64,000 bases of DNA from Bryobacterales bacterium (GTDB lineage Bacteria > Acidobacteriota > Terriglobia > Bryobacterales > UBA6623): positions 4,898,625-4,962,624 of the forward strand of contig CBDCOA010000003.1 in NCBI GenBank assembly GCA_965219585.1, given 5' to 3'. The position numbers and the translations under genes were made by a program. This document shows, piece by piece, positions 14,229-33,051 of this stretch (the first letter of the stretch is position 1; each line of letters begins with the position of its first letter). The notes beneath the pieces are model-generated. The model saw only the letters and a list, made by a program, of their open reading frames with translations, was not told where the DNA came from and ran no database searches.

Positions 14229-14285
14229 TGCAGGCGCAACTTCATCCTAGCCAATGGGGCGGCGTCGAGTTTCGACGCGACCGGC

Positions 14286-15341: not shown

Positions 15342-15374
15342 TCGTTCAGTGTATGCCAGATTGCACTCATGTGT

Positions 15375-15383
15375 CCCCCACTG
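15375..15383. repeat. target-site duplication of IS copy 1 (outer side), CCCCCACTG
   Basis: Identical 9-mer directly abuts the other end of the IS at 18127..18135. Confidence 0.85.
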
Positions 15384-18126
15384 CTAGCGACCGGACATTG
15401 TTGATGCTGGGAGATTGGAGACATTGGTGGGCTGATGCTCACATTCGGTTTAGATGATGCCGAATGGACTTTCCGGATACTTGAGGGCGAGAAGAGGCAG
15501 ACCGGCGCAGTGCGGCAGACGCAGGCATCTGGCAGCACCGGGTTGGGGCTGCCCGGCCAGCGTTGCCGTGCCGGTTATTGCGTTGCGCAGGGGTCCCATG
15601 CGGCCGTCACGCAATGGATGGGAACACGGATCACCGGCGACCATCGGACAGGCTTCGAGTTGCGCCAAGGAGCGGTTCCCGACGCGGCCCGCAGCAAGGC
15701 CGGCGAGAGGATTCCCGACCCACGACAGTGCATCCAGGAGAGCGTTCTGCACTCCTGCTGACGATCCCCTACGGCGGCCCCCGCAACGTCTGCCGGTAGC
15801 GCACCATCGTTTGCAGCTGCCGGTACGCCTGCCACAGCACTTCGTTGCCCGGCAGTTCCCGGTGTTTCTTCGGACGCCAGCCCCGCATGCGCGCCAGCAG
15901 CAGCACCCAACTGCGAATGCCCGCTCCCACCGGCTGGCCGCGTTCCCGCGGCGGTCGCAAGCGCTCCGCCTCCGTCACGGCCTCGATCACGGCCAGCTCG
16001 TCCGCCGTGAGCACCTCCTCCGCCGGCGTGTCCGGCGCGTCCCGCGCGTAGCGGTCCAAGCTGAACACTCTCCAGGCCGTGATCGCGTCGAACACCAAGC
16101 ACTTGCCCAGCGCCTCCGCGTCCCGCAAGCGCCGGTCCTCGATCCGCGTGCCGCTCTTGAGCAGCCGGAAATACTCCTCGATCGCCCAGCGCCGCTCGTA
16201 CCAGCCCACGATCCGCTCGGCCCACTGTGCTGTCGCCGCCCCCTCGCTGCACAGCAGCAGCCACTCCAAGCCATCTTCCCCGGCTGGCGGGTTCGGCTCC
16301 AGCACCCGCACCAGCCACACTGGCAACGGCTGCGCCTGCCCGGCCTGCCCCTGCGGCGGCAGCAACTCCACCCGGCCGATTCGGATCTCCGTCACTGCCG
16401 TGCGCTTCTCCCGCGCCCGCTGCCCCCCTTGCGAGTCGATCTCCACCTTGCGGCCACTCACCAGCACCTCTTCGAAGTCCGGCTGCGCCTCGATCGGCCG
16501 GATCATCTCCGCCGCGAACGCCGCGTCCCACACCCGTACCTTGCGCTGTCGCCCCAAGTGCACCCGCACCAGCAACCCGGCCTCCTGCCGACGTTCCGCC
16601 TGCTGTTCGAACAAACCGAAAATGTCGCTCTCGCGGTCGCCCACCACCACGACCCGCGTCTGCGGACTGCAGCGCCCCAGTTCCTGACCCTGCTCGAACC
16701 CCCGGAACCAGCGCTGGCTCTCCTTCTCGCGCTCCGCCTCCCGGCCCGGGTCCTGCAACGGCCGCGCCCACTGCTCCAGACCGCTCACCCCCAGCGGACG
16801 CCCGCCTGCGGTGAATCCCACCGCCGCGTGCACGAACAGCCCGCGCGCACTGCTGGCGCGGTCCTTTAACGGCCCCAACCCGCTCGTGCAATCCTTCAGC
16901 TGCGTGTAGTTCAGCGTCGTGGTGTCCTGCACCAGCAACACCGTCGACTCCACCTGCACCCGCTCCAGCAAGGCCTCCCGGTGCGGTTGCAGAATGTCCT
17001 TGTCGCTCACCCTGCCATTGTGCAGCAGGCGCGTCGCCGCCCGCAGGTCCGCCTCGTGCGGGAAGATCGCCGGCAGAGCCTCCCCCGGGTGCCGCTCCCA
17101 GCTCTGCCCCATCTGCTCCAGCCGCTGGCGCAAGCGCCCGTCCGGCAGGTCCGAACGCAGGTACTCCCGGCGCGCCCAGTTCGCCTCCTCCTCCAGCACC
17201 AGCTCCGGGTACTGCCCCAGCTTCCGCTGCGGCTGCTGGCTCAGCTTGGGCTGCCAGTCCGGCTCCAAACCGAGCAGCCAGACCGCCTTCGCCGCGCCCG
17301 CCGCGCCCGCTCCCGGCGGCTGCCCCTGCGTGTGTCCCACGCACTGCCAGCCGGCCGCCTTGTAACTCGTGCCCGGGCGCGCGCTGTCCACGCAGGTCTC
17401 CACCAGCCAAGGCTGCACTCCGTGCGCCTGTTGCCAGTCCCGGGCCAGCGCCCGGATGGCCCTGCCCAGCACGTGCGAGGCTAGGTGCGGCACCTGCACG
17501 CCCGGCACGAGCAGGAAGCGATCGTTGTTCAGGACCCGCTCGATGTGCGCTCCGCGCGTGCGCTCGTCCCACTGCAGGAAGGCATCGCGCGGCCCCAGCC
17601 GGAACGGCGCCGCCACGAACGAGAGCACGCCCAGCGGCCCGCACTCGGCGCTGAGCAGATAGCTCAGCCGACAGCCGGGCGCCCGGGCCGAGCCCAGCGG
17701 ATGGTGCTGGTCCAGCAGGGCGGCGCACTGCCGCCGCTGCTCGGCGGAACTGGCCAGACCCACGCGCACCTCGCCGAGTTCCTGCAGCGAGCCGCGGAAG
17801 CTGGCCGCTGGCAATGACGGGTCCGCGCTGAAGCGTGGGCCGCCGGCGGGCGGCCCCGGCTGGGCTGCCGGCAGCGGCAGGCCCAGTTGGGCGGCCAACT
17901 CGGGCAGCGCCTTGCGCGCCGAGGCCGTGCAATACTCGCCCTTGGGATTGCGCCAGTCGTCCTGCTCGCAGACCCCGCGCCCCAAGGCCGCCCGCGACAG
18001 CTGGCCCTGCAGCAAGGCCTCGCGCAGCCAAGTGATCGTCTTCGGACGGAAGATGCGGAGCCCTACCCGCACTACTCCCGTTCTACACAGAACACCGTGC
18101 CTGTGTCAAGTATGTCCAGTCGCTAG
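15384..18126 (-). mobile_element. IS4-family (Tn5/IS50-like) insertion sequence, copy 1, 2,743 bp
   Basis: Reverse complement of 30299..33041: coordinates of all twin ORFs sum to 48425 and their translations are identical. Imperfect terminal IRs are 15384 CTAGCGACCGGACATTGTTGA and, at 18126 (reverse complement), CTAGCGACTGGACATACTTGA. Flanked by a 9-bp direct repeat. Confidence 0.9.
15769..18072 (-). CDS. Tn5-like DDE transposase with N-terminal DUF4338-like extension (767 aa)
   Basis: Identical to the 30353..32656 product. Tn5-like blocks are LLVQDTTTLNY (D), VVVGDRESDIFGLF (D) and YERRWAIEEYFRLLKSG (E). Confidence 0.9.
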   Translation of the reverse strand: MRVGLRIFRPKTITWLREALLQGQLSRAALGRGVCEQDDWRNPKGEYCTASARKALPELAAQLGLPLPAAQPGPPAGGPRFSADPSLPAASFRGSLQELGEVRVGLASSAEQRRQCAALLDQHHPLGSARAPGCRLSYLLSAECGPLGVLSFVAAPFRLGPRDAFLQWDERTRGAHIERVLNNDRFLLVPGVQVPHLASHVLGRAIRALARDWQQAHGVQPWLVETCVDSARPGTSYKAAGWQCVGHTQGQPPGAGAAGAAKAVWLLGLEPDWQPKLSQQPQRKLGQYPELVLEEEANWARREYLRSDLPDGRLRQRLEQMGQSWERHPGEALPAIFPHEADLRAATRLLHNGRVSDKDILQPHREALLERVQVESTVLLVQDTTTLNYTQLKDCTSGLGPLKDRASSARGLFVHAAVGFTAGGRPLGVSGLEQWARPLQDPGREAEREKESQRWFRGFEQGQELGRCSPQTRVVVVGDRESDIFGLFEQQAERRQEAGLLVRVHLGRQRKVRVWDAAFAAEMIRPIEAQPDFEEVLVSGRKVEIDSQGGQRAREKRTAVTEIRIGRVELLPPQGQAGQAQPLPVWLVRVLEPNPPAGEDGLEWLLLCSEGAATAQWAERIVGWYERRWAIEEYFRLLKSGTRIEDRRLRDAEALGKCLVFDAITAWRVFSLDRYARDAPDTPAEEVLTADELAVIEAVTEAERLRPPRERGQPVGAGIRSWVLLLARMRGWRPKKHRELPGNEVLWQAYRQLQTMVRYRQTLRGPP

Positions 18127-18135
18127 CCCCCACTG
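18127..18135. repeat. target-site duplication of IS copy 1 (inner side), CCCCCACTG
   Basis: Matches 15375..15383 exactly. Confidence 0.85.
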
Positions 18136-18298
18136 TTAGACCCGTGATTCAGCAGCCCAGCGACATGCGCGCACCGCCGGACCGCGGTCCATCGAGCGCC
18201 CGCAACCGCTCTTTCCCGACTGTCTCAGGTAGCTGTTAGGGTGAGAGATGGCGTGGGCCTCTCTGGAACCCCGCTAGGTCCGCGAGCTTAGTTCAGCG

Positions 18299-20326
18299 AT
18301 GGCAACCCACTTGATAGAAGTCGCAGAGGGTATCGTCCCCTCCGAAGTGCTTCGGGAGCTATACGAGAAAATGCTCCAGTGCTACTACGTCGAGGAGCGC
18401 GCCAAGGTCTTCCTGAAGCAGGGCAGGCTGGCCTTCTATGCCTCGACTCGCGGGCACGAGCAGGTTCAGGTCGGCGTGCCGATGCTGATGCGCCCGGGCC
18501 ACGACTGGTTCTACACCTACTACCGCGAGAAGAGCGTGGCCGTCACGCTCGGAATGCCCTACAAGGACATCTTCCTAGGCCTGCTCAGCCGTGACGGGGA
18601 TCCCAATTCCGGGGGTGTCAACATGCCCGAGCAGTGGTCTTCCCGCGATCTCAGGCTCGTGGCGCAGAGCGCCGCCACCGGCACCCAGTACCTGCCGGCC
18701 CTCGGCGCTGCCCGCGCCATGCGCTACGACGGCTCCGACGCGATCGTCTATGCGTCCTCTGGCGAGGGTGCCACCAGCGAGGGAGAGTTCTTCGAGTCGC
18801 TCAACTGGGCCGCGCGCGAGCGCCTGCCGGTGCTGTTTGTCGTGCAGAACAACGGCTACGCCATCAGCGTGCCGCAGAAGTACCAGACGGCTTCCAAGAT
18901 CCACAGGATCGCCGAGGGCTTCGGCCTGCCCGCCTACGAGCTGGACGGCACGGGCACCTTCGACGAGATCTACCGGCTCGTGCCCGGCCTGATCCGCGAT
19001 ATCCGAGCCGGCAACGGGCCGGCGCTGATCGAGTTCAACGTGGTCCGCTTGGACAATCACTCCTCGTCCGACGACCAGCGCAGGTACCGCAGCGAGTCCG
19101 AGATCCAGTCGGCCGTCTCGCGCGATCCGGTGCTGCAGGCCGAGCGTCAGGTGTTGGACGCCGGCATCATGACCCCGGCCGAGATCACGGACTTGCGCGC
19201 CAGCATCAAGGCGGAGGTCGACCAGGCTGCGGAGGAGGCAAGCGGCCATCCGCATCCGCAGAACTACGACGTCACGCAGCACGTGTTCTCGGATCAATTG
19301 CCCGTGACCGAGGAATCGCAGCCGAACTTCACAGGGTCCAAGGTGTCGATGGTCCAGGCCATCAATTCCGCGCTGCGCGAGGAGATGTCGCGCAACCCCA
19401 AGATCGTCATGTGGGGCGAGGATATCGAAGACCCGAAGGGCGGGGTGTTCGGCGTGACCAAGGGCCTGGCCGACGAATTCGGCCAGGACCGCTGCGTGAA
19501 CGCTGCCCTGGCCGAGGCTTCGATCTTGGGTATTGCCGGTGGCATGGGCACGGCGGGCTACATGCCGATCGTGGAGATCCAGTTCGGAGACTACATCTGG
19601 CCGGCATTCATGCAGATGCGCGACGAGATCGCGCCGATGCGCTGGCGCAGCGCCGGCGCTTGGGGCTGCCCGATGGTCTGCCGTGTCGCCGTGGGCGGTC
19701 ACATCAAGGGCGGCCCGTGGCACTCGGCCAACATCGAGGGCTTCTTCGCCAACATTCCGGGCTGGTACATCGCCTACCCTTGCTCCGCCCAGGATGCCAA
19801 GGGCCTGCTCAAGACGGCCGCGCGGATGCAGGACCCGGTCCTGTTCCTCGAGCACAAGGGCCTCTACCGGGCCATGCCCGCGCGGACCCCGGAGCCGGAC
19901 GAGAACTATCTGATCCCGTTCGGCAAGGCTTCGACGAGGCGCTCCGGCACCGACCTTACAGTCGTCACCTGGGGCTACACGGTGCACCAGGCCGAGGCGG
20001 CCGCCAATGCCTTGGCCGAAGAGGGCGCGGGCTCGGTCGAAGTGATCGACTTGCGCACCATCGTCCCGTGGGACAAGCAGGCGGTGTTCGACAGCGTCCG
20101 GCGCACCAACCGCGTCTTGGTGGCCCACGAGGACAGCCTCACCATGGGATTCGGGGCCGAGGTTGCCGCCGAGATCTCGCAGCATTGCTTCGACCGCCTC
20201 GACGCTCCTGTCGCCCGCATCGGGGCACAGGATTGCTTCGTACCGTCGGCGGTCAATCTCGAGCGCGAGACCCTGCCCTCGCAGGAATCCGTCAAGCTCG
20301 CAATGTCTCGGCTGCTAAAGTACTAG
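18299..20326 (+). CDS. thiamine-diphosphate-dependent 2-oxoacid dehydrogenase E1 component, fused alpha/beta subunits
   Basis: 675 aa. The N-half is E1-alpha-like (YASSGEGATSEGEFFESLNWAARERLPVLFVVQNNGYAIS). The C-half is E1-beta-like (IVMWGEDIEDPKGGVFGVTKGL...RCVNAALAEASILG...EIQFGDYIWPAF). Confidence 0.8.
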   Translation: MATHLIEVAEGIVPSEVLRELYEKMLQCYYVEERAKVFLKQGRLAFYASTRGHEQVQVGVPMLMRPGHDWFYTYYREKSVAVTLGMPYKDIFLGLLSRDGDPNSGGVNMPEQWSSRDLRLVAQSAATGTQYLPALGAARAMRYDGSDAIVYASSGEGATSEGEFFESLNWAARERLPVLFVVQNNGYAISVPQKYQTASKIHRIAEGFGLPAYELDGTGTFDEIYRLVPGLIRDIRAGNGPALIEFNVVRLDNHSSSDDQRRYRSESEIQSAVSRDPVLQAERQVLDAGIMTPAEITDLRASIKAEVDQAAEEASGHPHPQNYDVTQHVFSDQLPVTEESQPNFTGSKVSMVQAINSALREEMSRNPKIVMWGEDIEDPKGGVFGVTKGLADEFGQDRCVNAALAEASILGIAGGMGTAGYMPIVEIQFGDYIWPAFMQMRDEIAPMRWRSAGAWGCPMVCRVAVGGHIKGGPWHSANIEGFFANIPGWYIAYPCSAQDAKGLLKTAARMQDPVLFLEHKGLYRAMPARTPEPDENYLIPFGKASTRRSGTDLTVVTWGYTVHQAEAAANALAEEGAGSVEVIDLRTIVPWDKQAVFDSVRRTNRVLVAHEDSLTMGFGAEVAAEISQHCFDRLDAPVARIGAQDCFVPSAVNLERETLPSQESVKLAMSRLLKY

Positions 20327-20332
20327 GCCCGC

Positions 20333-20845
20333 ATGCTACCGCGCGGACAGCGCGCTGCGCCTCGGCCCGGCCTCCCGGGCTTGGCGCCGCTGGCAATCCT
20401 TGCCTTGGCCCTGTGGGCCGCTTGCGGCGGGCCGCCGCAAGCGGCCCCGGGCGGCTCGGAGCCGGCGCAGCTTCCGACCACGCAGGTCACTCTGCCTGAC
20501 GGGGCCCTGATCGAAGCCGAGCTGGCGATTTCGTCTGAAGAGCAGGCGCGCGGGCTGATGTTCCGCGCCGAGCTGCCTCCGGATCGCGGCATGCTGTTCG
20601 TCGGCAGCCGCTCGACCCAGCGTTCGTTCTGGATGTACCAGTGCCTGATCCCGCTGGACATCATCTGGATGGACGGCGCGCACCGCATTGTCGAGATCGT
20701 CCGCTCGGCGCCGCCTTGCGCCTCGACGAATCCGGGCGGTTGCCCCAGTTATGGAGGCAACGCCAACTCGGTCTACGTCCTGGAACTGGCTGCTGGCCAG
20801 TCCGACGCTCACGGGCTGAGTATTGGCGATCGGCTAGACTTCTAG
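20333..20845 (+). CDS. DUF192 domain protein, probable lipoprotein/secreted
   Basis: 170 aa. Signal with LAILALALWAACGG. The DUF192-like core is ARGLMFR..LPPDRGMLFV......FWMYQCLIPLDIIWMD...IVEI. Confidence 0.65.
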   Translation: MLPRGQRAAPRPGLPGLAPLAILALALWAACGGPPQAAPGGSEPAQLPTTQVTLPDGALIEAELAISSEEQARGLMFRAELPPDRGMLFVGSRSTQRSFWMYQCLIPLDIIWMDGAHRIVEIVRSAPPCASTNPGGCPSYGGNANSVYVLELAAGQSDAHGLSIGDRLDF

Positions 20846-20916
20846 ACGTAACCCTACTGGCAGGGATTCCGCCATCCTTTGTCAGGGGTTGGTGCGTCCG
20901 CTCGCCCCCGCAGACT

Positions 20917-22200
20917 ATGTCCAAGAAGCGCCTCATCGCCATCGTGTTCGGCATCGCGATCGTCTACCTGGTGGGCAGCAGGGTGTACGAGGCCAACCAG
21001 CTGGCGAACGCTCCGGCCAAGAAGAAGGCCGCAGGCCGCGTGGTCAACGTCGACGTGACCCAGGCCCGCATCGGCTCCATCCGCGAGGAGCTGCTGCTGA
21101 CGGGCTCGCTGAAGCCGAAAGAGACCGTCGATATCAACCCGAAGATCACCGGCCGCATCGAGAAGATCAACTTCTTGGTCGGCGACTGGATGGCGCAGGG
21201 CGCGGTTGTCGCAGAAATCGAAGTCGACGAGCTGGCGCAGCAGGTCAGGCGCTCGGAAGCGTCCTATTCGGTGAGCGAGGCCAACATTTCCGCCCGCAAG
21301 GCCGAGCTGGCCCGTGCCAAGGCGGACCTTGACCGCGCCAAGCTGCTGTTCGACGAAGATCTGCTCTCGCCCCAGGAATTCCAGCAGTCCCAGACTTCTC
21401 TGGAGGTGCTGGAGGCCCAGGTCGAACTCGCCGAGGCCCAGCTCGAACAATCCACCGCGGAACTGACCGAGCTGCGCATCCGACTTGAGCAGGCCAAGAT
21501 CTACGCGCCCATGAGCGGCTTGGTCTCGGCCCGCTACGTAGACCCGGGCGCGCTCGTGACCCCGGGCAGCCCGATCATCCAGATCGTGAACCTTTCGACG
21601 ATGGTCACGCGCGGCAACGTGCCCGAGCGGAACATCGACAAGCTGGCCGTCGGCAACACGGCGGCCGTGCACGTGGACGCTATCCCTGGGCAACAGTTCG
21701 AGGGACGCATCGCGCGCATCGCGCCGGTGCTTGACGCGGCCACCCGCAGCGCCATCATCGAGATCGACATCCGCAATCCCGAAGCCGTGCTCAAGGCCGA
21801 GATGTTCGCGCGCATCACTCTGGACTTGGGCTCGACCCGCGAGGCCACACTGATCCCGCGCGACGGCTTGGTCTATCGCGGCCAGCAGCCCGGCGTCTAC
21901 GTGGTCCCGGACGAGCAGGACCGGCCGGTCTTTCGCGTCATTGAGACGGGGCTCACGCGCGAGGGGCAGATCGAGGTCCTGGCGAACCTGGACGCTGGCA
22001 CGCGCATCGTCGGCCGCGGGGCGACCATGCTGCGGGATGGCGACCGCATTAGCACCGGCCCGGGCGGCGGCCGCGGTGGTGCTGGCCCAGGCGGTGGCGC
22101 TGATGCAGGCGGTGGCCGCGGTGGTGCTGGCGGGGGTGGCGGCGGCCCCGGCGGTGGTGCCGGCGCGGCCCAGAAGGCTGCCACCAAGAGCGCCAGCTAG
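20917..22200 (+). CDS. efflux RND transporter periplasmic adaptor (MFP) with Gly-rich C-terminal tail
   Basis: ATG 20917 lies within ORF 20641..22200. N-terminal anchor MSKKRLIAIVFGIAIVYLVG. Has a coiled-coil hairpin region (AELARAKADLDRAKLLFDEDLLSPQEF...) and beta-barrel motifs (IYAPMSGLVSARYVDPGALV). The tail is GPGGGRGGAGPGGGADAGGGRGGAGGGGGGPGGG. Confidence 0.85.
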   Translation: MSKKRLIAIVFGIAIVYLVGSRVYEANQLANAPAKKKAAGRVVNVDVTQARIGSIREELLLTGSLKPKETVDINPKITGRIEKINFLVGDWMAQGAVVAEIEVDELAQQVRRSEASYSVSEANISARKAELARAKADLDRAKLLFDEDLLSPQEFQQSQTSLEVLEAQVELAEAQLEQSTAELTELRIRLEQAKIYAPMSGLVSARYVDPGALVTPGSPIIQIVNLSTMVTRGNVPERNIDKLAVGNTAAVHVDAIPGQQFEGRIARIAPVLDAATRSAIIEIDIRNPEAVLKAEMFARITLDLGSTREATLIPRDGLVYRGQQPGVYVVPDEQDRPVFRVIETGLTREGQIEVLANLDAGTRIVGRGATMLRDGDRISTGPGGGRGGAGPGGGADAGGGRGGAGGGGGGPGGGAGAAQKAATKSAS

Positions 22201-22207
22201 GCGTTTT

Positions 22208-22229
22208 CCCGGCCAGCCGGGCGATTTTT
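22208..22229 (+). terminator. weak intrinsic-terminator-like hairpin between adaptor and first RND gene
   Basis: CCCGG-ccag-CCGGG is followed by CGATTTTT, 8 nt after the adaptor stop codon. The stem is short (5 bp). Confidence 0.3.
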
Positions 22230-22308
22230 CTCGGCGCAAACCCCGGTTGCGGCGGGACTTGCTCGGGCTCGCGAGCTTGGAGCGAGCTAAGATTGGGCAG
22301 GGTGAGTT

Positions 22309-25300
22309 GTGAACTTTAGTCTCTCGACCGCATCCATCCACCGCCCCGTAACCGTCTTGATGGCGTGCTTGGTCGCCATCCTGCTGGGGGCGGTTGCGTT
22401 CGTCAACATCCCCGTCGACTTGATGCCGGAGATCGTCTACCCGACGATCAGCGTCAGGGCCGAGTACGCCGGCGTGGCCCCCGAAGAGATGGAGACGCTG
22501 GTGGTGCGCCCGCTGGAGGAGGCCTTCTCATCGGCCCCGCACGTGGAGCGCATCTCCAGTTCCGTGTACGAGGGACTGTGCTACGTTCGCGTCGGTTTCG
22601 ACTACGGGGTCGACATCGACGAAGCGGCCAATGAGCTGCGCACTCGCCTGGACCGCAGGCGCCGCTACTTGCCGGAGGACATGGATCCGCCGAGCATGTA
22701 CAAGTACGATTCCTCGCAGTATCCCATCATGTACCTAGCGGTTTCGGCCCGCGAGATGGGGCCGAAGGACCTGCGGCACTACGTCGAAAAACAGATCCAG
22801 CCGCGCCTCGAGCGAGTTCCCGGGATCGCCGCGTTCACGGTGCGCGGAGGGCTGCGCCGCGAGATCCACGTCGACCTGGATCTGAAGAAGCTGCGGGCGC
22901 TCGACCTGTCCATCCCGCACGTGGTCCAGATCTTGCGCCAGGAGAACATGAACCGCCCGGTCGGCCCGGTCGACGAGGGCCGCTTCGAAGTGCTGCTCCG
23001 CACGCGCGGCGAATTCCAGAGCTTGGAGGAGATTCGCGACGTCGTGTTGACCACGCGCAATAACGTGCCCGTGCATGTGCGGGACATCGCCACGGTTCAC
23101 GACAGTCACGAGGACATCGACTATCTGGTGAGCGTGGACGGCGAGCCCGGCGTGCGCATGTACGTCTACAAGCAGGCCGGGGCGAACACGGTCGAGGTCT
23201 CGGACGCCTTGTGGGTCGAGGTGGATCGCATCCACGAGGCCTTCCCCAATATCCGCATCGAGAAGACCCGCGACAGCGCCGACTTCATTCGCGCCTCGAT
23301 CGCCAACGTGCGCGGCGCCATGCTGCAGGGCGCCGGACTCGCGGTCGTGGTGCTGCTGTTCTTTCTGCGCAGCGTGTCGAGCACCCTGATCATCGGCATC
23401 GCGATCCCGATTTCAGTCATCGCCACGTTCGCGCTGATGTTCTTCAACGGGTTCACGCTCAACACCGTCTCGTTCGGCGGGCTGGCGCTGGGCGTCGGCA
23501 TGCTGGTCGACAACGCGATCGTGGTGCTGGAGAACGTCTACCGCCACCGCGAGGGAGGCAAGGCTCCGCTGGATGCGGCGGTCGAAGGCAGCCGCGAGGT
23601 CTCGATGGCGATTACCGCCTCCACGCTGACGACTGTGGCGGTCTTCGTGCCGGTGCTGTTCGTCGGGGGCATCGCCGCTCAGACCTTCAAGCAGCTCGCG
23701 TACGTGGTCAGCTTCGCGCTGCTGTGCTCGCTGGCGGTCGCGCTGATGGTGGTTCCGGGCTTGTGTGCGAAGTTGGCCAGCCGCCGCGGGCCGGGCGCGC
23801 AGGTCACCCAGATCAGCGATATGGCGCGCACCTGGCAGCGCAACATGGCCGCCGCATACGGCGGATCGCTGCAGTGGTCGCTCAACCACAAGGCCCCGGT
23901 AGTCGTGGTGGCGGCGCTGCTGTTCGCCGTGGCGGTCTACTTGATGCCGTATCTCGGCGTCGAATTGCAGCCGGAAGTTGATGAGGGCGAGGTCCGTGTC
24001 AGCGTCGAGCTCGAGCCCGGCACGCGGGTCGAGGTCACCGACAGCGTGATGCAGCACCTGCGCGCGGTCGCGATGGAGACCGCGCCGGAAATCACCACGG
24101 CCATGGTGACGGCCGGCGGGAGCTCCCGCAGCAGCGGATCGGGCGCCCATCTCGGCGAATTGCGCCTCAATCTCGTTCCAAAGACCGAGCGCAGCCGGTC
24201 GGCCCGCGATGTGGCCAACGAGCTGCGCGGGGCCTTGCAGATCCAGCCGGGCATGCTGGTCAGGACGCGCGTCTCGGGCGGCATGTTCAGGAGCCGGGGC
24301 AGCGATTCCGACGACGACCGCCTTTCGGTGGAGATCCGCGGGCACAACATGGACACGGCGGCCCAGCTGGCCGAGACGATCCGCGAGACCATGGAGCGCA
24401 CCCCGGGAATCGCCGAGCCTACGATCAGCCAGCGCCCCGGCATGCCGGAAATGCTGGTCGAGGTCGACCGCATGCGCGCTTCCAACATGGGCCTCAACGT
24501 GTCCGAGATCGCCCTCACGCTGGAAACGGCGATCGGCGGCGCTCGCAGTTCGATGTACCGCAAGGAGGGCGACGAGTACAACATCCTAGTGCGCCTGCGG
24601 CAGGAGGATCGCCTGGATCTTGACAACGTGGGGCGCATCCCCCTGACCACCCCGCTCGGTACGACCATCACGGCCGGAAGCGTGATCGAACTCCGGCGGC
24701 AGGAAGGCCCGACCTACATCAGCAGGGTGAACCAAGAGCGGCGGATGTTCGTCTCCGGAGCGCTGGCGGACCGGGACCTGGGCAGCATCGTCAACGATCT
24801 GGCGACCGAGTTCCGGGGGATGGCAATGCCCGAGGGGTTCTCGATCGAGTACGGCGGCGAGTACGAGGAACAGCAGGAGACCTTCCGCAACCTGTTCTTC
24901 GCGTCCATTCTGGCCCTGGTCTTGGTGTACATGGTGATGGCGGCGCAGTTCGAATCGCTCAAGGACCCCTTCCTGATCCTGTTTTCCGTGCCGCTGGCGG
25001 CCATCGGTGTCGTGCTGGTGCTCCTGCTCACCGAGACAACCTTCAACCAGCAGGCGTTCCTGGGCTTGATCGTGCTGCTCGGCATCGTGGTCAACAACGC
25101 CATCGTGCTGGTGGACTACACCAACCTGCTGCGCCGCGAGCACGGCTTGGGCCTGTACCGGGCCGCGGTGACCGCCGGCATGCGGCGGATGCGGCCGATC
25201 CTGATGACGACCATCACAACCGTGCTGGGCCTGGCTCCGATGGCGCTAGGGCTGGGCGAGGGTTCGGAATTGCAAGCTCCGATGGCGCGCGTGGTGATCG

Positions 25301-25434: not shown

Positions 25435-25554
25435 TTCGTTCGCCCGTAACCCGATGCCACCAAAGCCGCGCCATATACATAGTTGGAGACACCGGCTGTC
25501 CCGTGGCGCGCCCCGGGGGGTGCGGGTTGCGGCTAGCCTCGCGAGGTGTGACGA

Positions 25555-28500
25555 ATGAGCCTTCCTGAGTTTTCGATCAAGCGACCGGTCACGGTGCTGA
25601 TGGCGGTGATGGTCTGCCTCCTGCTCGGCTTCATCGCATTCACCGAGATCCCGGTGGATCTGATGCCGGAGGTCAACTATCCGACCCTGAGCGTCACCAC
25701 CGACTACGAGGGCGTGGGTCCCGAGGAGATCGAGACGCTCATCAGTCGTCCCCTCGAGCAGATTGTCTCAGCGGCCCCTGGCGTCGAGCGCGTCACCTCG
25801 ACTTCCAGCGAAGGCCGCTCCTCGGTGCGCATCGAGTTCGTCTTCGGCACGGACATCGAAGTTGCGGCGGACGAGGTGCGCTCGCGCTTGGACCGGGGGC
25901 GCCGCACGCTGCCGGACGACATCGAGCCGCCCACGATCTTCAAGTTCGATGTGACCCAGTTCCCGATCATGTTTCTCACGGTGGCCACCGACGAGATGGA
26001 CCCGCGCGAGCTGCGGATGTTCACCGAGAAGAACATCCTGTATCGCTTCGAGCGCATCAAGGGCGTCGGCCAGGTGCGCGTCGGCGGCGGCCTGCGCCGC
26101 GAGATTCACATCGACCTGAACCTGGAAAAGCTACGCGCCCTCGATCTGTCGGTGGCGCAAGTGGTCAATACGGTGCGGGACGAGAACCTCAACCGCCCGG
26201 TGGGCCCGGTCAAGGAGGGCCGCTTCGACGTCCTGCTGCGCACCAGCGGCGAATTCAACAACGTCAACCAGCTGCTCGATGTGGCCTTGGCTTCCCGCGC
26301 CGGTGTCCCCGTGTATGTGCGCGACATCGCGGAGGTCGACGACTCGCACCCGGACATCCGCCACTACGTGGGCGTGAACGGCTCTCAGGCGCTCCGCCTG
26401 ATCATGTTCAAGCAGTCCGGTTCCAACACGGTCAAGGTCTCTGAGGGGATTTGGGAAGAAATCGCCGAGATTCATCGCGACTATCCGCACATCAGGATCG
26501 ACAAGACCATGGACACCGCGGATTTCATCAACGCCGCGATCCGCAATGTCGAGGCCGCCGCCGCCGTGGGCGCGGTGCTCGCGGTGTTCGTGCTGCTGCT
26601 GTTCCTGCGCAGCCTGTCCAGCACCTTGATCATCGGTGCGGCGATACCGATTTCGGTTGTCTCGACCTTTGCCCTGATGTACTTCAACGGCTTCACCCTC
26701 AACATCGTCTCCTTCGGCGGGCTGGCCCTAGGCGTGGGCATGCTCGTCGACAACGCGATCGTGGTGTTGGAGAACATCTACCGCCATCGCGAGGAGGGCA
26801 CCGAGTCGCGGCAGGCCGCGCTCGTCGGCAGCCGCGAGGTGGGCATGGCGATCACGGCATCCACGCTGACCACGATCGCCGTCTTCGTGCCGGTAATGTT
26901 CATCGGCGGCTACGCTGCGCAGACCTTCCAGCAACTGGCGTATGTGGTCAGCTTTTCGCTGCTGTGCTCGCTGGTCGTGGCGCTGACGGTCGTGCCCGCC
27001 CTGTGCTCGCGGCGCACGGGCACCGCTAGCGGCGGCGGGATCCGCATCCTGCGCTACGCCGAGCAGGTCATGGTCGCGCTGTCTCGGAACTATTCCGAGA
27101 TTATCCGCTGGTCGCTGGCAAACCGCCTGGTGGTGACGGGATTGGCCGCTGGGCTGTTTGTTTGCGCGATCTGGCTGACCGGCTATGTCGGCGTCGAACT
27201 GGAACCGCAGGTCGACGAGGGCCAGATCCGCATCAACCTGGAATCCGAGCCCGGAACGCGAGCGGAGGTGACGAAGGAGATCGTCGATCAAATGGAGGCG
27301 ATCATCATGCGCGACGTCCCCGAGATCGAATACATCATGACCGAGGCCGGCAGCGACAGCCCCTTCCGCTCGATCGCCACCCACATCGGCGAACTGCGCA
27401 TCACCTTGGTCGACCAGAGCCAGCGCGACCGCACGGCCCGCGAGATCACCAACATGCTCAGGCCCAAGCTGATGGCCGTGGCGCCGGGCGTGCAGCTGCG
27501 CACGCGCATTTCCAGCGGCAACTTCGGACGGCGGCGCGGCGGCGGCGATGGTGCCGACGACCGCCTGCAGGTCACGATTCGCGGCTACGACCCGGACACT
27601 ACCGCTAACCTCGCCCTGCAGGTGCGCGACGCCATGCTGTCGGTCGACGGCGTGGAGGAGGCACAGATCAGCCGCCGGCCCGGCACTCCCGAGATGCTGG
27701 TCCGCGTCGACAGGCTCAAGGCTGCCAGCGTGGGCATGTCGGTAGCGGAGGTCGCAGCTACTCTCGAGACCGCCGTGGGCGGGCGCCGCTCGACCTTCTA
27801 TCGCGAGCAGGGCGACGAGTACGACATCGTGGTGCGCCTGCGCGAGGAGGACCGCCTGCAACTCGACCAGGTTGGGCGCATCCCTCTGCGCACGCCGCAA
27901 GGGAATCTCATCTACGCCAACGACGTCGTTCGCCTGAATCGCCAGGAGGGCCCGGTCGAGATCAACCGCGTCGACCAGGAGCGCATCGTCTATGTCTCGG
28001 GCACGATCGGTGATCGCAACTTGGGCGCCATCATTGCGGACTTGCGCGGCGAGGTCGCCCAGATCAACCGGCCCGACGGCTACGAGATCCGCTTCGGCGG
28101 CGAGTGGGAGGACCAGCAGGAGTCCTTCCGGGAGCTGACGTTCGCGGGCATCCTGGCGCTGCTGCTGGTCTACATGGTCATGGCGGCGCAGTTCGAGTCG
28201 CTGCGCGACCCGTTCATCATCTTGTTCTCGATCCCGCTGGCGGCCATTGGCGTTGTCACCATGCTCGTGATCACGGAGACCACCTTCAACATGCAGGGGT
28301 TCCTCGGCGTGATTGTGCTGGTGGGCATTGTCGTCAACAACGCGATCGTGCTCATCGACTACACGAACCAACTGCGCCGCGACCACGGGTACGGCATCAT
28401 GGATTCCGTCATCACGGCCGGCGGCCGCCGGCTGCGGCCGATCATGATGACCACGATCACGACCATCCTGGGCCTCACGCCGATGGCGCTCGGCCTGGGC

Positions 28501-28686
28501 GAGGGGTCGGAGCTGCAAGTGCCGATGGCGCGCGTGGTGATCGGCGGGCTGCTGACCTCCACGCTCATCACCCTCGTGTTCATCCCGGTGGTGTACGCCA
28601 CGTTGGAGGAGTTCGCCGAAAAGCTGGCGGGGCGTCGCCGGCGGGGCGTCGTGTCTGAGCCTTTGCAGCCTGCGGAGGGCGATTAA
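25555..28686 (+). CDS. efflux RND transporter permease subunit, paralog 2
   Basis: 1043 aa. Collinear with paralog 1 (SIKRPVTVLMAVMVCLLLGFIAFTEIPVDLMPE; GMLVDNAIVVLENI; VVNNAIVLIDY). Confidence 0.9.
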   Translation: MSLPEFSIKRPVTVLMAVMVCLLLGFIAFTEIPVDLMPEVNYPTLSVTTDYEGVGPEEIETLISRPLEQIVSAAPGVERVTSTSSEGRSSVRIEFVFGTDIEVAADEVRSRLDRGRRTLPDDIEPPTIFKFDVTQFPIMFLTVATDEMDPRELRMFTEKNILYRFERIKGVGQVRVGGGLRREIHIDLNLEKLRALDLSVAQVVNTVRDENLNRPVGPVKEGRFDVLLRTSGEFNNVNQLLDVALASRAGVPVYVRDIAEVDDSHPDIRHYVGVNGSQALRLIMFKQSGSNTVKVSEGIWEEIAEIHRDYPHIRIDKTMDTADFINAAIRNVEAAAAVGAVLAVFVLLLFLRSLSSTLIIGAAIPISVVSTFALMYFNGFTLNIVSFGGLALGVGMLVDNAIVVLENIYRHREEGTESRQAALVGSREVGMAITASTLTTIAVFVPVMFIGGYAAQTFQQLAYVVSFSLLCSLVVALTVVPALCSRRTGTASGGGIRILRYAEQVMVALSRNYSEIIRWSLANRLVVTGLAAGLFVCAIWLTGYVGVELEPQVDEGQIRINLESEPGTRAEVTKEIVDQMEAIIMRDVPEIEYIMTEAGSDSPFRSIATHIGELRITLVDQSQRDRTAREITNMLRPKLMAVAPGVQLRTRISSGNFGRRRGGGDGADDRLQVTIRGYDPDTTANLALQVRDAMLSVDGVEEAQISRRPGTPEMLVRVDRLKAASVGMSVAEVAATLETAVGGRRSTFYREQGDEYDIVVRLREEDRLQLDQVGRIPLRTPQGNLIYANDVVRLNRQEGPVEINRVDQERIVYVSGTIGDRNLGAIIADLRGEVAQINRPDGYEIRFGGEWEDQQESFRELTFAGILALLLVYMVMAAQFESLRDPFIILFSIPLAAIGVVTMLVITETTFNMQGFLGVIVLVGIVVNNAIVLIDYTNQLRRDHGYGIMDSVITAGGRRLRPIMMTTITTILGLTPMALGLGEGSELQVPMARVVIGGLLTSTLITLVFIPVVYATLEEFAEKLAGRRRRGVVSEPLQPAEGD

Positions 28687-28802
28687 TTCGCGGGCCGGGC
28701 GGTTTCTTGCAATTCCCGGTCGCGATCTGATCGCTGTGTTGTGTAGAATCAATGGTGCCCGACCAGCCTCGGGCGTGAAGATTCACTGAAGGAGTACCAA
28801 TC

Positions 28803-29498
28803 ATGAGAACCATCCGTTCGGCCAGCCTAGCCGTTCTCTGCCTCGCTTTGACGATGGGCGCGCTTTCCGCCGCCACGCTGTCCGGTCCCGAGATCCGCGG
28901 CAGCTACATCGAATCGCGCAACGCCGAGATCTACGCCTCGCACTGCTTCGCCAACAGCGAAGTCGGCATCACTGGCGATCTTGCCGTGATGGCGTGGGAC
29001 ATCGAGCAGGGCAGCTTCAAGGGCGTGTCCCTGGCGAATACTAGGGTCGTGGCCGTGGTCAACGCGACGTCCACTATCGGCAATCCGTTCGGCGACGCGC
29101 TCCCGGCGAAATCGATGCTGATCTTCGACGAGGCCACCTCCGTGCTGCAGCGCGGGGCCCTGGCGGCCTTCGTCAAGGCCCAGGCCGGCCCGCTCGTGCA
29201 CAACGTGGTCCACACCGACACGGCCCCGATCGAGATCGATTTCCACGGCAGCCTGCACGACCGCGTGGCGACCCTGCGCGCCGGCGAGATCGTCTCGCTG
29301 GAGACGCGGGAGATCCGCGGCAGCGATTCGCTGTGCCACCTTGACGACATCTACTACGAGCCTCTGGTCGCGCTGGATCACGCCATGCCGGCGTTTGCCA
29401 TCGAGCAGTCCTTCCGCGGCGACGGCCTTGGCCACCAGATGCGCGAGTACCGGCGCTCGAGCGCCTATCTGGGCACCTTCGCCGTCAGCGGAAGCTAG
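28803..29498 (+). CDS. hypothetical secreted protein
   Basis: 231 aa. Signal peptide MRTIRSASLAVLCLALTMGALSA. No family recognised with confidence. Confidence 0.5.
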   Translation: MRTIRSASLAVLCLALTMGALSAATLSGPEIRGSYIESRNAEIYASHCFANSEVGITGDLAVMAWDIEQGSFKGVSLANTRVVAVVNATSTIGNPFGDALPAKSMLIFDEATSVLQRGALAAFVKAQAGPLVHNVVHTDTAPIEIDFHGSLHDRVATLRAGEIVSLETREIRGSDSLCHLDDIYYEPLVALDHAMPAFAIEQSFRGDGLGHQMREYRRSSAYLGTFAVSGS

Positions 29499-29619
29499 GC
29501 CTCCCGCTCACACAGGCTGGATAGGTTCCGTGCCGGGGCCGCCGCTGTCGGCGGCTCCGGCTTGTCCCATTTGTTAGGTGTCGGCCGGACCGGCCGGCGG
29601 AGTTCGCGAGGAGAATTGG

Positions 29620-30258
29620 ATGCGACGCTCGTGCCGCTTTGCGATGGTTCTTGGGGCGCTCGCCCTGCTGCCAGCCGGGCTGGCCCAGAAGTACACGGCC
29701 GAGGGCGGCGCGCCGCTGCCCGCCAGCGTGCCGGAGGCGACGCGCGAGCTGGTGGCCGCCGAGGGTGTCGCCGTCAAGTCTGGCGACGAGGTGGTGATGC
29801 GCTTCTGGATGCGCACCGCACCGTTCGAGGGCGATCCCGCCAGCGGTTTCGGAGTGCGCTTCGACAACGTCCCCGAGGGCGCGTTCCTGGGCGTGCTCGA
29901 GTTCGTGGGGCGGGGCTCGGATTTCCGCGAGCAGTCCGTGCCCGCGGGCGTGTACACCTTGCGCTTCGGCCTGCACCCCGAGGACGGCAATCACATGGGC
30001 GTTGCCGCCAGCCGCGACTTCGGCTTGCTGGCCCCCGTGGAAAAGGACCTGGAGATCACCCGCAACTTCGATTTTGACGGCATCGTGGAATTGAGCGCCG
30101 ATGTCGGCAACCCGCACCCCACCGTCGCGCGCCTCGAGCTGCCGGAGGGCGATCAGGGGCCGCACCTTTGGGAGAACGACTACGAGCACTGGGTGCTCGA
30201 CGTTACGGTGGCCGACACCGTGGTCGGTATCGTGGTGGACGGCCATGCCGAGGAGTAG
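29620..30258 (+). CDS. hypothetical secreted protein
   Basis: ATG 29620 lies within ORF 29578..30258 and is preceded by GAGGAG. Signal peptide MRRSCRFAMVLGALALLPAGLA. No family recognised. Confidence 0.5.
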   Translation: MRRSCRFAMVLGALALLPAGLAQKYTAEGGAPLPASVPEATRELVAAEGVAVKSGDEVVMRFWMRTAPFEGDPASGFGVRFDNVPEGAFLGVLEFVGRGSDFREQSVPAGVYTLRFGLHPEDGNHMGVAASRDFGLLAPVEKDLEITRNFDFDGIVELSADVGNPHPTVARLELPEGDQGPHLWENDYEHWVLDVTVADTVVGIVVDGHAEE

Positions 30259-30288
30259 CCTGCCGCAGGGAGCGGTCTGACGCGAACA

Positions 30289-30298
30289 GTGGTTTTGC
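30289..30298. repeat. target-site duplication of IS copy 2 (inner side), GTGGTTTTGC
   Basis: Identical 10-mer abuts the other IS end at 33042..33051. This is 9 bp plus one possibly fortuitous base. Confidence 0.8.
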
Positions 30299-30315
30299 CT
30301 AGCGACTGGACATAC

Positions 30316-30345
30316 TTGACACAGGCACGGTGTTCTGTGTAGAAC
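30316..30345 (+). promoter_or_regulatory. candidate transposase promoter inside the left IS end (mirror site in copy 1 at 18080..18109, minus strand)
   Basis: Perfect -35 TTGACA (30316-30321), an 18-nt spacer, then TAGAAC (30340-30345). GTG 30353 lies 7 nt after the -10, so the mRNA would be near-leaderless. Confidence 0.3.
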
Positions 30346-30352
30346 GGGAGTA

Positions 30353-32656
30353 GTGCGGGTAGGGCTCCGCATCTTCCGTCCGAAGACGATCACTTGGCTG
30401 CGCGAGGCCTTGCTGCAGGGCCAGCTGTCGCGGGCGGCCTTGGGGCGCGGGGTCTGCGAGCAGGACGACTGGCGCAATCCCAAGGGCGAGTATTGCACGG
30501 CCTCGGCGCGCAAGGCGCTGCCCGAGTTGGCCGCCCAACTGGGCCTGCCGCTGCCGGCAGCCCAGCCGGGGCCGCCCGCCGGCGGCCCACGCTTCAGCGC
30601 GGACCCGTCATTGCCAGCGGCCAGCTTCCGCGGCTCGCTGCAGGAACTCGGCGAGGTGCGCGTGGGTCTGGCCAGTTCCGCCGAGCAGCGGCGGCAGTGC
30701 GCCGCCCTGCTGGACCAGCACCATCCGCTGGGCTCGGCCCGGGCGCCCGGCTGTCGGCTGAGCTATCTGCTCAGCGCCGAGTGCGGGCCGCTGGGCGTGC
30801 TCTCGTTCGTGGCGGCGCCGTTCCGGCTGGGGCCGCGCGATGCCTTCCTGCAGTGGGACGAGCGCACGCGCGGAGCGCACATCGAGCGGGTCCTGAACAA
30901 CGATCGCTTCCTGCTCGTGCCGGGCGTGCAGGTGCCGCACCTAGCCTCGCACGTGCTGGGCAGGGCCATCCGGGCGCTGGCCCGGGACTGGCAACAGGCG
31001 CACGGAGTGCAGCCTTGGCTGGTGGAGACCTGCGTGGACAGCGCGCGCCCGGGCACGAGTTACAAGGCGGCCGGCTGGCAGTGCGTGGGACACACGCAGG
31101 GGCAGCCGCCGGGAGCGGGCGCGGCGGGCGCGGCGAAGGCGGTCTGGCTGCTCGGTTTGGAGCCGGACTGGCAGCCCAAGCTGAGCCAGCAGCCGCAGCG
31201 GAAGCTGGGGCAGTACCCGGAGCTGGTGCTGGAGGAGGAGGCGAACTGGGCGCGCCGGGAGTACCTGCGTTCGGACCTGCCGGACGGGCGCTTGCGCCAG
31301 CGGCTGGAGCAGATGGGGCAGAGCTGGGAGCGGCACCCGGGGGAGGCTCTGCCGGCGATCTTCCCGCACGAGGCGGACCTGCGGGCGGCGACGCGCCTGC
31401 TGCACAATGGCAGGGTGAGCGACAAGGACATTCTGCAACCGCACCGGGAGGCCTTGCTGGAGCGGGTGCAGGTGGAGTCGACGGTGTTGCTGGTGCAGGA
31501 CACCACGACGCTGAACTACACGCAGCTGAAGGATTGCACGAGCGGGTTGGGGCCGTTAAAGGACCGCGCCAGCAGTGCGCGCGGGCTGTTCGTGCACGCG
31601 GCGGTGGGATTCACCGCAGGCGGGCGTCCGCTGGGGGTGAGCGGTCTGGAGCAGTGGGCGCGGCCGTTGCAGGACCCGGGCCGGGAGGCGGAGCGCGAGA
31701 AGGAGAGCCAGCGCTGGTTCCGGGGGTTCGAGCAGGGTCAGGAACTGGGGCGCTGCAGTCCGCAGACGCGGGTCGTGGTGGTGGGCGACCGCGAGAGCGA
31801 CATTTTCGGTTTGTTCGAACAGCAGGCGGAACGTCGGCAGGAGGCCGGGTTGCTGGTGCGGGTGCACTTGGGGCGACAGCGCAAGGTACGGGTGTGGGAC
31901 GCGGCGTTCGCGGCGGAGATGATCCGGCCGATCGAGGCGCAGCCGGACTTCGAAGAGGTGCTGGTGAGTGGCCGCAAGGTGGAGATCGACTCGCAAGGGG
32001 GGCAGCGGGCGCGGGAGAAGCGCACGGCAGTGACGGAGATCCGAATCGGCCGGGTGGAGTTGCTGCCGCCGCAGGGGCAGGCCGGGCAGGCGCAGCCGTT
32101 GCCAGTGTGGCTGGTGCGGGTGCTGGAGCCGAACCCGCCAGCCGGGGAAGATGGCTTGGAGTGGCTGCTGCTGTGCAGCGAGGGGGCGGCGACAGCACAG
32201 TGGGCCGAGCGGATCGTGGGCTGGTACGAGCGGCGCTGGGCGATCGAGGAGTATTTCCGGCTGCTCAAGAGCGGCACGCGGATCGAGGACCGGCGCTTGC
32301 GGGACGCGGAGGCGCTGGGCAAGTGCTTGGTGTTCGACGCGATCACGGCCTGGAGAGTGTTCAGCTTGGACCGCTACGCGCGGGACGCGCCGGACACGCC
32401 GGCGGAGGAGGTGCTCACGGCGGACGAGCTGGCCGTGATCGAGGCCGTGACGGAGGCGGAGCGCTTGCGACCGCCGCGGGAACGCGGCCAGCCGGTGGGA
32501 GCGGGCATTCGCAGTTGGGTGCTGCTGCTGGCGCGCATGCGGGGCTGGCGTCCGAAGAAACACCGGGAACTGCCGGGCAACGAAGTGCTGTGGCAGGCGT
32601 ACCGGCAGCTGCAAACGATGGTGCGCTACCGGCAGACGTTGCGGGGGCCGCCGTAG
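30353..32656 (+). CDS. Tn5-like DDE transposase with N-terminal DUF4338-like extension (767 aa)
   Basis: Residues ~300-767 are collinear with Tn5 Tnp as I recall it (Tnp DNA-binding N-domain, DDE blocks DTTTLNY / GDRESD / RWAIEEYF). Residues 1-~290 carry HHPLGS...NNDRFLLVPGVQVPHLASHVL...DW...GVQPWLVETCVD...GTSYKAAGWQCVGHTQG. Confidence 0.9.
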   Translation: MRVGLRIFRPKTITWLREALLQGQLSRAALGRGVCEQDDWRNPKGEYCTASARKALPELAAQLGLPLPAAQPGPPAGGPRFSADPSLPAASFRGSLQELGEVRVGLASSAEQRRQCAALLDQHHPLGSARAPGCRLSYLLSAECGPLGVLSFVAAPFRLGPRDAFLQWDERTRGAHIERVLNNDRFLLVPGVQVPHLASHVLGRAIRALARDWQQAHGVQPWLVETCVDSARPGTSYKAAGWQCVGHTQGQPPGAGAAGAAKAVWLLGLEPDWQPKLSQQPQRKLGQYPELVLEEEANWARREYLRSDLPDGRLRQRLEQMGQSWERHPGEALPAIFPHEADLRAATRLLHNGRVSDKDILQPHREALLERVQVESTVLLVQDTTTLNYTQLKDCTSGLGPLKDRASSARGLFVHAAVGFTAGGRPLGVSGLEQWARPLQDPGREAEREKESQRWFRGFEQGQELGRCSPQTRVVVVGDRESDIFGLFEQQAERRQEAGLLVRVHLGRQRKVRVWDAAFAAEMIRPIEAQPDFEEVLVSGRKVEIDSQGGQRAREKRTAVTEIRIGRVELLPPQGQAGQAQPLPVWLVRVLEPNPPAGEDGLEWLLLCSEGAATAQWAERIVGWYERRWAIEEYFRLLKSGTRIEDRRLRDAEALGKCLVFDAITAWRVFSLDRYARDAPDTPAEEVLTADELAVIEAVTEAERLRPPRERGQPVGAGIRSWVLLLARMRGWRPKKHRELPGNEVLWQAYRQLQTMVRYRQTLRGPP

Positions 32657-33041
32657 GGGATCGTCAGCAGGAGTGCAGAACGCTCTCCTGGATGCACTGT
32701 CGTGGGTCGGGAATCCTCTCGCCGGCCTTGCTGCGGGCCGCGTCGGGAACCGCTCCTTGGCGCAACTCGAAGCCTGTCCGATGGTCGCCGGTGATCCGTG
32801 TTCCCATCCATTGCGTGACGGCCGCATGGGACCCCTGCGCAACGCAATAACCGGCACGGCAACGCTGGCCGGGCAGCCCCAACCCGGTGCTGCCAGATGC
32901 CTGCGTCTGCCGCACTGCGCCGGTCTGCCTCTTCTCGCCCTCAAGTATCCGGAAAGTCCATTCGGCATCATCTAAACCGAATGTGAGCATCAGCCCACCA
33001 ATGTCTCCAATCTCCCAGCATCAACAATGTCCGGTCGCTAG

Positions 33042-33051
33042 GTGGTTTTGC
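33042..33051. repeat. target-site duplication of IS copy 2 (outer side), GTGGTTTTGC
   Basis: Matches 30289..30298. Confidence 0.8.

Follow-up and report, generated by a model that had tools for sequence, protein, structure and literature searches.

When two copies of the same insertion sequence (IS) enclose a block of genes, the block may have travelled with them as the cargo of a composite transposon, or the copies may have landed separately on either side of genes already in place. This question is raised by a stretch of 64,000 nucleotides (here called the window) from contig CBDCOA010000003.1 of a Bryobacterales bacterium (assembly GCA_965219585.1), where two Tn5-like IS copies in inverted orientation lie on either side of 12.2 kb of DNA carrying a fused E1 dehydrogenase gene and RND efflux genes. 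A preliminary description of the locus, made from the nucleotide sequence alone, had proposed that the copies arrived independently in intergenic DNA and that the 17.7-kb unit which they delimit did not transpose here as a whole. Comparison with related contigs supports both proposals. We put at about 0.9 the probability that the pair records two separate simple insertions of a predicted active IS, oppositely oriented, in two intergenic regions on the chromosome of a Bryobacterales-like acidobacterium. The composite-transposon layout is an accident of these two insertions.

The two copies (15384-18126 and 30299-33041) are exact reverse complements of each other over 2,743 nt, with 100% identity by both a repeat finder and string comparison, and the repeat finder places 12,172 nt between the inverted arms. 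BLAST of the element against the 64-kb window returned no copy or fragment beyond these two. The preliminary description had advised counting further copies in the genome, and at least one more, disrupted, lies elsewhere on the 5,858,096-bp source contig: its product (P0130, 360 aa) is identical to the transposase as far as about residue 350 (...AATRL) and then diverges, with a tail that has no match in the window. Proteins from the same 90% clusters carry the names Bryobacterales or Terriglobia. The element is bounded by imperfect terminal inverted repeats, identical at 18 of 21 positions, with the pattern CTAGCGAC(C/T)GGACAT(TG/AC)TTGA (end motif CTAGCGACYGGACAT); in degenerate form this pattern has four occurrences in the window, where 0.01 would be expected. 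Both outer ends are mutually identical, as are both inner ends, so either pair of ends could be synapsed. At copy 1, TGTGT and CCCCCACTG are followed by the IS, running from CTAGCGACC to GTCGCTAG (in a second rendering, CTAGCGACCGGACAT on the left and ATGTCCAGTCGCTAG on the right), and then by CCCCCACTG and TTAGAC. At copy 2, GAACA and GTGGTTTTGC precede an IS running from CTAGCGACT to GGTCGCTAG (likewise CTAGCGACTGGACAT on the left and ATGTCCGGTCGCTAG on the right), after which GTGGTTTTGC and AGTCC are read. From base composition (66% guanine plus cytosine, G+C), a fixed-register match would arise by chance with a probability of ~9e-6 for 9 bp and ~2.5e-6 for 10 bp. The outermost flanks differ, with CCCCCACTG on one side and GTGGTTTTGC on the other. 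Direct re-reading bore out the coordinates, flanking repeats and imperfect inverted repeats of the preliminary description, as well as the identity of the copies.

The state of each site before insertion can be read from related contigs, which were recovered by look-ups of exact window proteins. One of them (L014, Logan SRR33343648) aligns with positions 5743-15387 of the window at 99.4% identity and with 18127-24980 at 99.9%, and the two alignments abut. The empty site predicted for copy 1, TGTGTCCCCCACTGTTAGAC, is present verbatim and uninterrupted in this contig and in a second one, L015 (99.4-99.9% identical to the window), both of which read CATGTGTCCCCCACTGTTAGACCCGTG across the site and hold a single CCCCCACTG. 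Seven contigs (L004-L007 and L009-L011, among them L005 from metagenome-assembled genome (MAG) GCA_022828025.1) have no interruption at the copy-2 site, the gene for a 212-aa protein leading straight into rpsL. These seven relatives give long alignments ~95-98% identical to the window, and ~93% over 310 nt around the site; once the IS and one 10-mer are removed, the window aligns gap-free to L009 across it. In IS-free relatives (L004-L011 and L014-L016), the genes follow in the order and orientation nusB, ribH, AhpC-like, E1 dehydrogenase, DUF192, membrane-fusion protein, RND, RND, DUF1326, 212-aa protein, rpsL, rpsG and fusA. As judged from this comparison, the 12.2-kb interval is ancestral chromosome in its ancestral orientation. 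Because the cargo keeps the same order, orientation and neighbourhood in these relatives, the 17.7-kb unit was not imported whole, and because the duplications are matched and the orientation is ancestral, there has been no net inversion of the interval, as the preliminary description had also held. Its claim of recent transposition is likewise supported: both insertions are young, since the two copies do not differ and contigs as close to the window as 99.4-99.9% identity lack copy 1. From its absence in L014 and L015 it follows that copy 1 is younger than the 0.1-0.6% divergence of the flanks.

Copies of the element at other loci indicate which duplication length is to be expected. The sister MAG GCA_022828025.1 has a 97.9%-identical IS at a different locus (L001), with its own 9-bp duplication TTCGTCCGG. 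When the representative genomes of GTDB were scanned for the end motif, 26 stretches were obtained, of which 25 are in three Bryobacterales MAGs (15, 8 and 2) and one is on a contig binned as Alphaproteobacteria (L030); they carry an isoform of 2.74-2.81 kb that is ~88% identical, apart from the 97%-identical L030 copy, and the related copies measure 2,739-2,814 bp. Among the 14 full-length GTDB copies (13 from Bryobacterales MAGs plus L030), 11 have perfect 9-bp duplications, one an 8/9 match and two none. With L001 included, the duplication is a perfect 9 bp in 12 of the 15 other full-length copies, and with both window copies in 13 of 17 (12 relatives and copy 1), copy 2 having 10 bp. The target duplication of this element family is 9 bp. 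The two copies without matched duplications, both in Bryobacterales MAGs (L018:3616-6682 and L041:1618-5108), are over-long at 3,067 and 3,491 bp, which is consistent with internal insertion, duplication or IS-by-IS rearrangement. The L030 copy (L030:805-3552, contig CBDCQT010000004.1) is flanked by a 9-bp duplication, has its transposase split into two (236 + 523 aa), and sits on a 39-kb contig binned in an Alphaproteobacteria MAG; either horizontal transfer or mis-binning of the contig would account for it.

Several alternatives have to be set against two young, independent insertions. The 17.7-kb unit is laid out like a composite transposon, with two copies of one IS, intact ends and intact transposase, inverted around RND efflux genes that would be plausible cargo, and it could be supposed to have arrived whole with the E1 dehydrogenase and RND genes. 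However, the outer flanks differ, each copy has its own duplication and the G+C of the cargo equals that of the flanks; what refutes the import is the synteny of relatives without IS at these sites, where the same cargo lies in its ancestral context between AhpC-like/ribH/nusB and rpsL/rpsG/fusA, and we regard it as scarcely credible. About as improbable is an assembly artefact in which one or both copies are misplaced: identical repeats often cause misassembly, and one relative (L008) has a scaffold gap at the copy-2 site, but junctions as exact as these, with perfect 9- or 10-bp duplications of sequence that relatives have once, are not what a misjoin would produce. A larger, still low, probability attaches to insertions that are old, their identity being due to gene conversion or to polishing onto one consensus. 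The source contig is probably metagenome-assembled, repeat copies are prone to consensus homogenisation and inverted repeats 12 kb apart can convert; on the other side stand the perfect duplications, the lack of copy 1 in L014 and L015 at such small flank divergence, and the 2%-different copy of the sister MAG, which indicates that diverged variants do get assembled. Slightly less unlikely is that the interval has inverted an even number of times, or that both isomers occur in the population and the assembly presents the major one. The 2.7 kb of perfect inverted homology would be an efficient substrate for recombination, and the L018 and L041 copies lack matched duplications, as expected after IS-by-IS rearrangement, but the arrangement here is ancestral with matched duplications, for which zero inversions is the simplest account.

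Some observations weigh against two recent simple insertions, or at least blunt that reading. The copy-2 empty site occurs in no relative more than 99% identical; the sole candidate, L008 (99.7% identical), is the closest relative to cover this region, but in it a scaffold gap of 100 N (L008:7962-8061) stands in place of window positions 30140-33658, and the L008 assembly may have broken on the same IS. A scan of JGI (Joint Genome Institute) metagenomes with the left flank of copy 2 gave no match, and hence no near-identical copy-2 site, empty or filled. The copy-2 repeat is 10 bp rather than 9, which needs an atypical stagger or one extra base carried along; copy 1 in its present context was rejected as donor of that base, the bases beside its ends being wrong. 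The 100% identity could come partly from gene conversion or from metagenome consensus polishing rather than from recency, an even number of inversions could have occurred, and the activity of the transposase is predicted.

For the two insertions, a mechanism can be proposed by homology with Tn5. The 767-aa transposase would bind the ~21-bp terminal repeats and synapse two ends, DDE-catalysed cleavage would excise the element, integration would occur across a 9-bp staggered cut, and repair of that cut would yield the flanking duplication. In principle, the 17.7-kb unit could be moved if its two identical outer ends were synapsed, and the interval could change its orientation through homologous recombination of one copy with the other. 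The preliminary description saw the cargo as poised for mobilisation; the architecture is indeed there, but nothing indicates that the unit ever moved, and neither whole-unit movement nor inversion has left a trace here. IS-by-IS inversion would exchange the partners of inner and outer junctions and nothing else; since recombination within the IS leaves all four local junctions unchanged, assays that read junctions only cannot detect the isomers, and a read or amplicon has to traverse an entire copy to do so.

The element encodes a single transposase of 767 aa in one open reading frame (ORF) without frameshift, the only long ORF that fits the homologues (Table 1). In both copies, the gene begins 54 nt away from the inner end and stops 385 nt short of the outer end, so that the transposase genes read outward from the cargo. 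Tn5 transposase chains were the sole matches in a PDB sequence search (expect value, E = 1.7e-26), with the C-terminal ~470 aa aligned end to end (query residues 293-756 on Tn5 residues 10-463). The catalytic residues are kept, corresponding to Tn5 D97 (VQDTTTLNY), D188 (VGDRESDI) and E326, as is the Y-(2)-R-(3)-E-(6)-K signature (YERRWAIEEYFRLLK, on Tn5 Y319/R322/E326/K333). NCBIfam transpos_IS4_3 matches residues 345-757 (1e-83) and Pfam PF14706, the Tn5-type transposase DNA-binding domain, residues 298-355; the match to DDE_Tnp_1 is weak. A DDE transposase with the Y-(2)-R-(3)-E-(6)-K signature and no frameshift is characteristic of the IS4 family, whose IS50 subgroup has ends of the form CW------Y---CA-A--W-, direct repeats of 8-9 bp and a length of 1,350-1,550 bp (PMC2266710, Table 1). 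Positions C1, T2, Y9, C13, A14 and T19 of this consensus fit both ends of the present element and A16 fits one, and the element has terminal inverted repeats with a duplication of about one helical turn (roughly 8-13 bp). By these features it is classed as a member of the IS4 family, IS50 (Tn5) subgroup, but it exceeds the size range of that subgroup, at 2,743 bp and 767 aa against 1,350-1,550 bp and ~450-480 aa. The earlier label of Tn5-like thus holds for catalysis, ends and duplication, but not in the sense of a plain IS50 type, given a 2.7-kb length and an additional N-terminal DUF4338/DruA domain.

This N-terminal part, which had been missed in the preliminary description, has no counterpart in Tn5 transposase over its first ~290 residues. 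Pfam DruA/DUF4338 (PF14236) matches residues 96-250 (E = 5.8e-18), and an alignment of 50 homologues down to ~38% identity has 22 invariant positions in this part. The AlphaFold2 model of residues 1-293 has a mean predicted local distance difference test score (pLDDT) of 88.2 and consists of a helical subdomain (1-63) and an alpha/beta domain (~95-280). Foldseek against the PDB returned 156 matches at E<=1e-3, with template-modelling (TM) scores of up to 0.70, and the best 50 of the 156 are all acyl/acetyltransferases, nearly all annotated as GNAT and led by CBU0801, RimI and SpeG. A GNAT fold is therefore predicted, in agreement with an earlier publication in which DUF4338 was called GNAT-like (PMC10853773). 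At the usual position of the acyl-CoA motif (Q/R-x-x-G-x-G/A), the protein reads QVPHLAS, with L197, A198 and S199 invariant, and the fit is not clear.

Fusions of this kind are numerous and occur widely in environmental genomes: 410 proteins match the transposase at E<=1e-10, and most of the best 120 of them are 745-800 aa long with both PF14236 and PF14706. Searched by itself, the N-terminal domain hits 4,585 clusters (50% identity), and the best 150 of these include both proteins of ~750-790 aa and proteins of ~290-400 aa. Among 72,556 plasmids (PLSDB) no match covers 80% of the transposase; only the Tn5-like part matches there, to ordinary IS4 transposases at ~30% identity, and the plasmid search with the element at nucleotide level gave no match. 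The literature search found no paper on a fusion of DUF4338/DruA with a Tn5-type transposase. Tentatively, and with the odds rather against the proposal as a whole, IS elements of this DUF4338 type might form an undescribed and widespread IS50-like branch of ~2.7 kb, abundant in Acidobacteriota and other uncultured soil lineages, that acquired a GNAT-fold module which works in transposition and shares ancestry with Druantia DruA. Such a module might, for example, control activity in an acyl-CoA-dependent manner, modify lysines of the host or the transposase, or take part in target choice.

Between the transposase stop and the outer end lies a tail of 385 nt (15384-15768 and 32657-33041, end repeat included), which is long for an IS50-like element and only ~81% identical to the tail of the ~88%-identical isoform. 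No open frame in it is conserved as protein, no Rfam model matches at gathering score or at E<=1, and its fold energy is no better than that of shuffled sequences (z-scores -0.65 and -0.55). These ORF, Rfam and folding results give no support to a second gene or a structured RNA in the tail.

Turning to the surroundings, copy 1 lies 42 bp from the start codon (ATG) of a gene of AhpC/DsbD_N type and 172 bp before the E1 dehydrogenase gene, a spacing that places it in the divergent control region of the two genes. A promoter scan in and around copy 1 found no sigma-70-type sites. Copy 2 follows the stop codon of the 212-aa gene by 40 bp and is separated by 450 bp from rpsL downstream (33492, mapped from L006), and read-through from the cargo operon could enter its transposase gene. 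Within the interval, the two RND permease genes are tandem paralogues, with 72-81% nucleotide identity over repeat segments of 197-300 nt spaced 3,240-3,243 bp apart, and the pair resembles the MdtB/MdtC type; a GGC-rich, 45-nt imperfect repeat (22063-22167) is found at the end of the membrane-fusion protein ORF.

The AhpC/TSA + DsbD_N gene beside copy 1 (15341-14286, minus strand) has an in-frame TGA at 15122-15120, at the first position of its redox motif (SADW-TGA-PFC, U/C-x-x-C), and a small hairpin (CCAGCU-CGUGC-AGCUGG) begins 16 nt downstream of it. The TGA is also present in relatives L014-L016, where the gene call is likewise split (73 + 270 aa). Within the window, there is no Rfam match to a selenocysteine insertion sequence (SECIS) element and no tRNA-Sec. 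The TGA is a candidate selenocysteine codon rather than the mark of a pseudogene. Copy 1 leaves this candidate selenoprotein gene in contact with no more than 42 bp of its upstream DNA, and expression of the gene may be affected.

Table 1. Positions in the window of the two IS copies, their ends and flanks, the transposase domains and the genes of the bracketed interval.
Feature	Position (strand)	Description	Basis
IS copy 1	15384..18126	2,743 bp; transposase on (-)	Identity to 30299-33041
IS copy 2	30299..33041 (+)	2,743 bp	Transposase 30353-32656 (+)
Copy 1 left target-site duplication	15375..15383	CCCCCACTG, 9 bp	Read directly; single in L014/L015 empty sites
Copy 1 right target-site duplication	18127..18135	CCCCCACTG, 9 bp	Read directly; L014/L015 comparison
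Copy 2 left flanking repeat	30289..30298	GTGGTTTTGC, 10 bp	Read directly; L009 alignment
Copy 2 right flanking repeat	33042..33051	GTGGTTTTGC, 10 bp	Read directly; L009 alignment
Copy 1 terminal inverted repeat, transposase-distal 'A' end	15384..15404 (+)	CTAGCGACCGGACATTGTTGA; outer end of pair	
Copy 1 terminal inverted repeat, transposase-proximal 'B' end	18106..18126 (-)	CTAGCGACTGGACATACTTGA; inner end	
Copy 2 B-end terminal repeat	30299..30319 (+)	Inner end	
Copy 2 A-end terminal repeat	33021..33041 (-)	Outer end	
Transposase gene, copy 1	15769..18072 (-)	767 aa, GTG start	Start position agrees with homologues
Transposase gene, copy 2	30353..32656 (+)		
Transposase, N-terminal layout	aa 1-63; aa ~95-280	Helical subdomain; predicted GNAT-fold DUF4338/DruA	AlphaFold2 model, Pfam
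Transposase, C-terminal layout	aa 298-355; to aa 757	Tn5-type DNA-binding domain; DDE/YREK core	Pfam, NCBIfam, Tn5 alignment
N-terminal domain, coding region	17194-18072 (-) and 30353-31231 (+)	DUF4338/DruA fused to complete Tn5-type transposase	
Non-coding tail, copy 1	15405..15768	Transposase stop to A-end repeat; 385 nt including repeat	
Bracketed interval	18127..30298 (+)	12,172 bp, native chromosome by comparison	Pfam; gene order in relatives
Fused E1 dehydrogenase	18299-20326		Pfam
DUF192	20333-20845		Pfam
RND membrane-fusion protein	within 20641-22200		Pfam
RND permeases	22309-25434 and 25555-28686		Pfam
DUF1326	28803-29498		Pfam
212-aa signal-peptide protein	29620-30258		

There is nothing exceptional about a pair of recent IS insertions, events of a well-documented kind; as a genome feature this locus matters little, being a textbook record of two of them. 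It does place 2.7 kb of inverted homology around an efflux and dehydrogenase block beside the str ribosomal operon, which makes the block liable to inversion and, in principle, to mobilisation. Copy 1 is also a useful strain marker, missing as it is from contigs 99.4-99.9% identical to the window. The part that might repay further work is the fused N-terminal domain alone, since Tn5-type enzymes that bear such a conserved, predicted GNAT-fold domain at the N-terminus make up a large family that appears undescribed. Tn5 transposase is a major laboratory tool, and for that reason naturally occurring variants equipped with a further domain for regulation or targeting could have practical interest.

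Among known systems, type I Druantia shares with transposase residues 96-250 the DruA Pfam match (DUF4338, PF14236) and the predicted GNAT-like fold. Here, however, the domain and the transposase of an IS are fused in one protein, no druB-E genes lie nearby, and the neighbours of the transposase are transposon ends and housekeeping or efflux genes, not those of a type I system. PADLOC matched no defence model, so the Pfam name DruA is not to be read as a defence function in this element. IS10 and Tn10 resemble the locus in the inverted-IS composite layout, the 9-bp duplication and the 5'-CT ends, but the similarity is much weaker, confined to generic IS4 models (E 1e-5 to 1e-7), and IS10 differs in size and N-terminal domain just as IS50 does. 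Closest are IS50 and Tn5, with a homologous catalytic region including the DDE and YREK residues, the PF14706 domain, 5'-CT ends, a 9-bp duplication and, for Tn5, a DNA segment held between two inverted IS copies. In Tn5 and Tn10, the 5' end of the transposase gene is at the outside end, and IS50L and IS50R are not identical. At the present locus the transposase 5' ends face the cargo and the two copies are identical; the Tn5-type composite architecture of the preliminary description therefore stands as regards two inverted copies but is the opposite of Tn5 in the direction of the transposase genes. One copy here has a 10-bp duplication, the element carries a 385-nt non-coding tail, and the cargo is, by comparison with relatives, native chromosome with no sign that the unit ever moved. 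The IS is about twice as long as members of the IS50 subgroup, and its transposase has 767 aa against 477 aa in Tn5, the difference coming from the 290-aa DUF4338/DruA extension. What distinguishes the element from described IS50-like elements is its size and this predicted GNAT-fold N-terminal domain.

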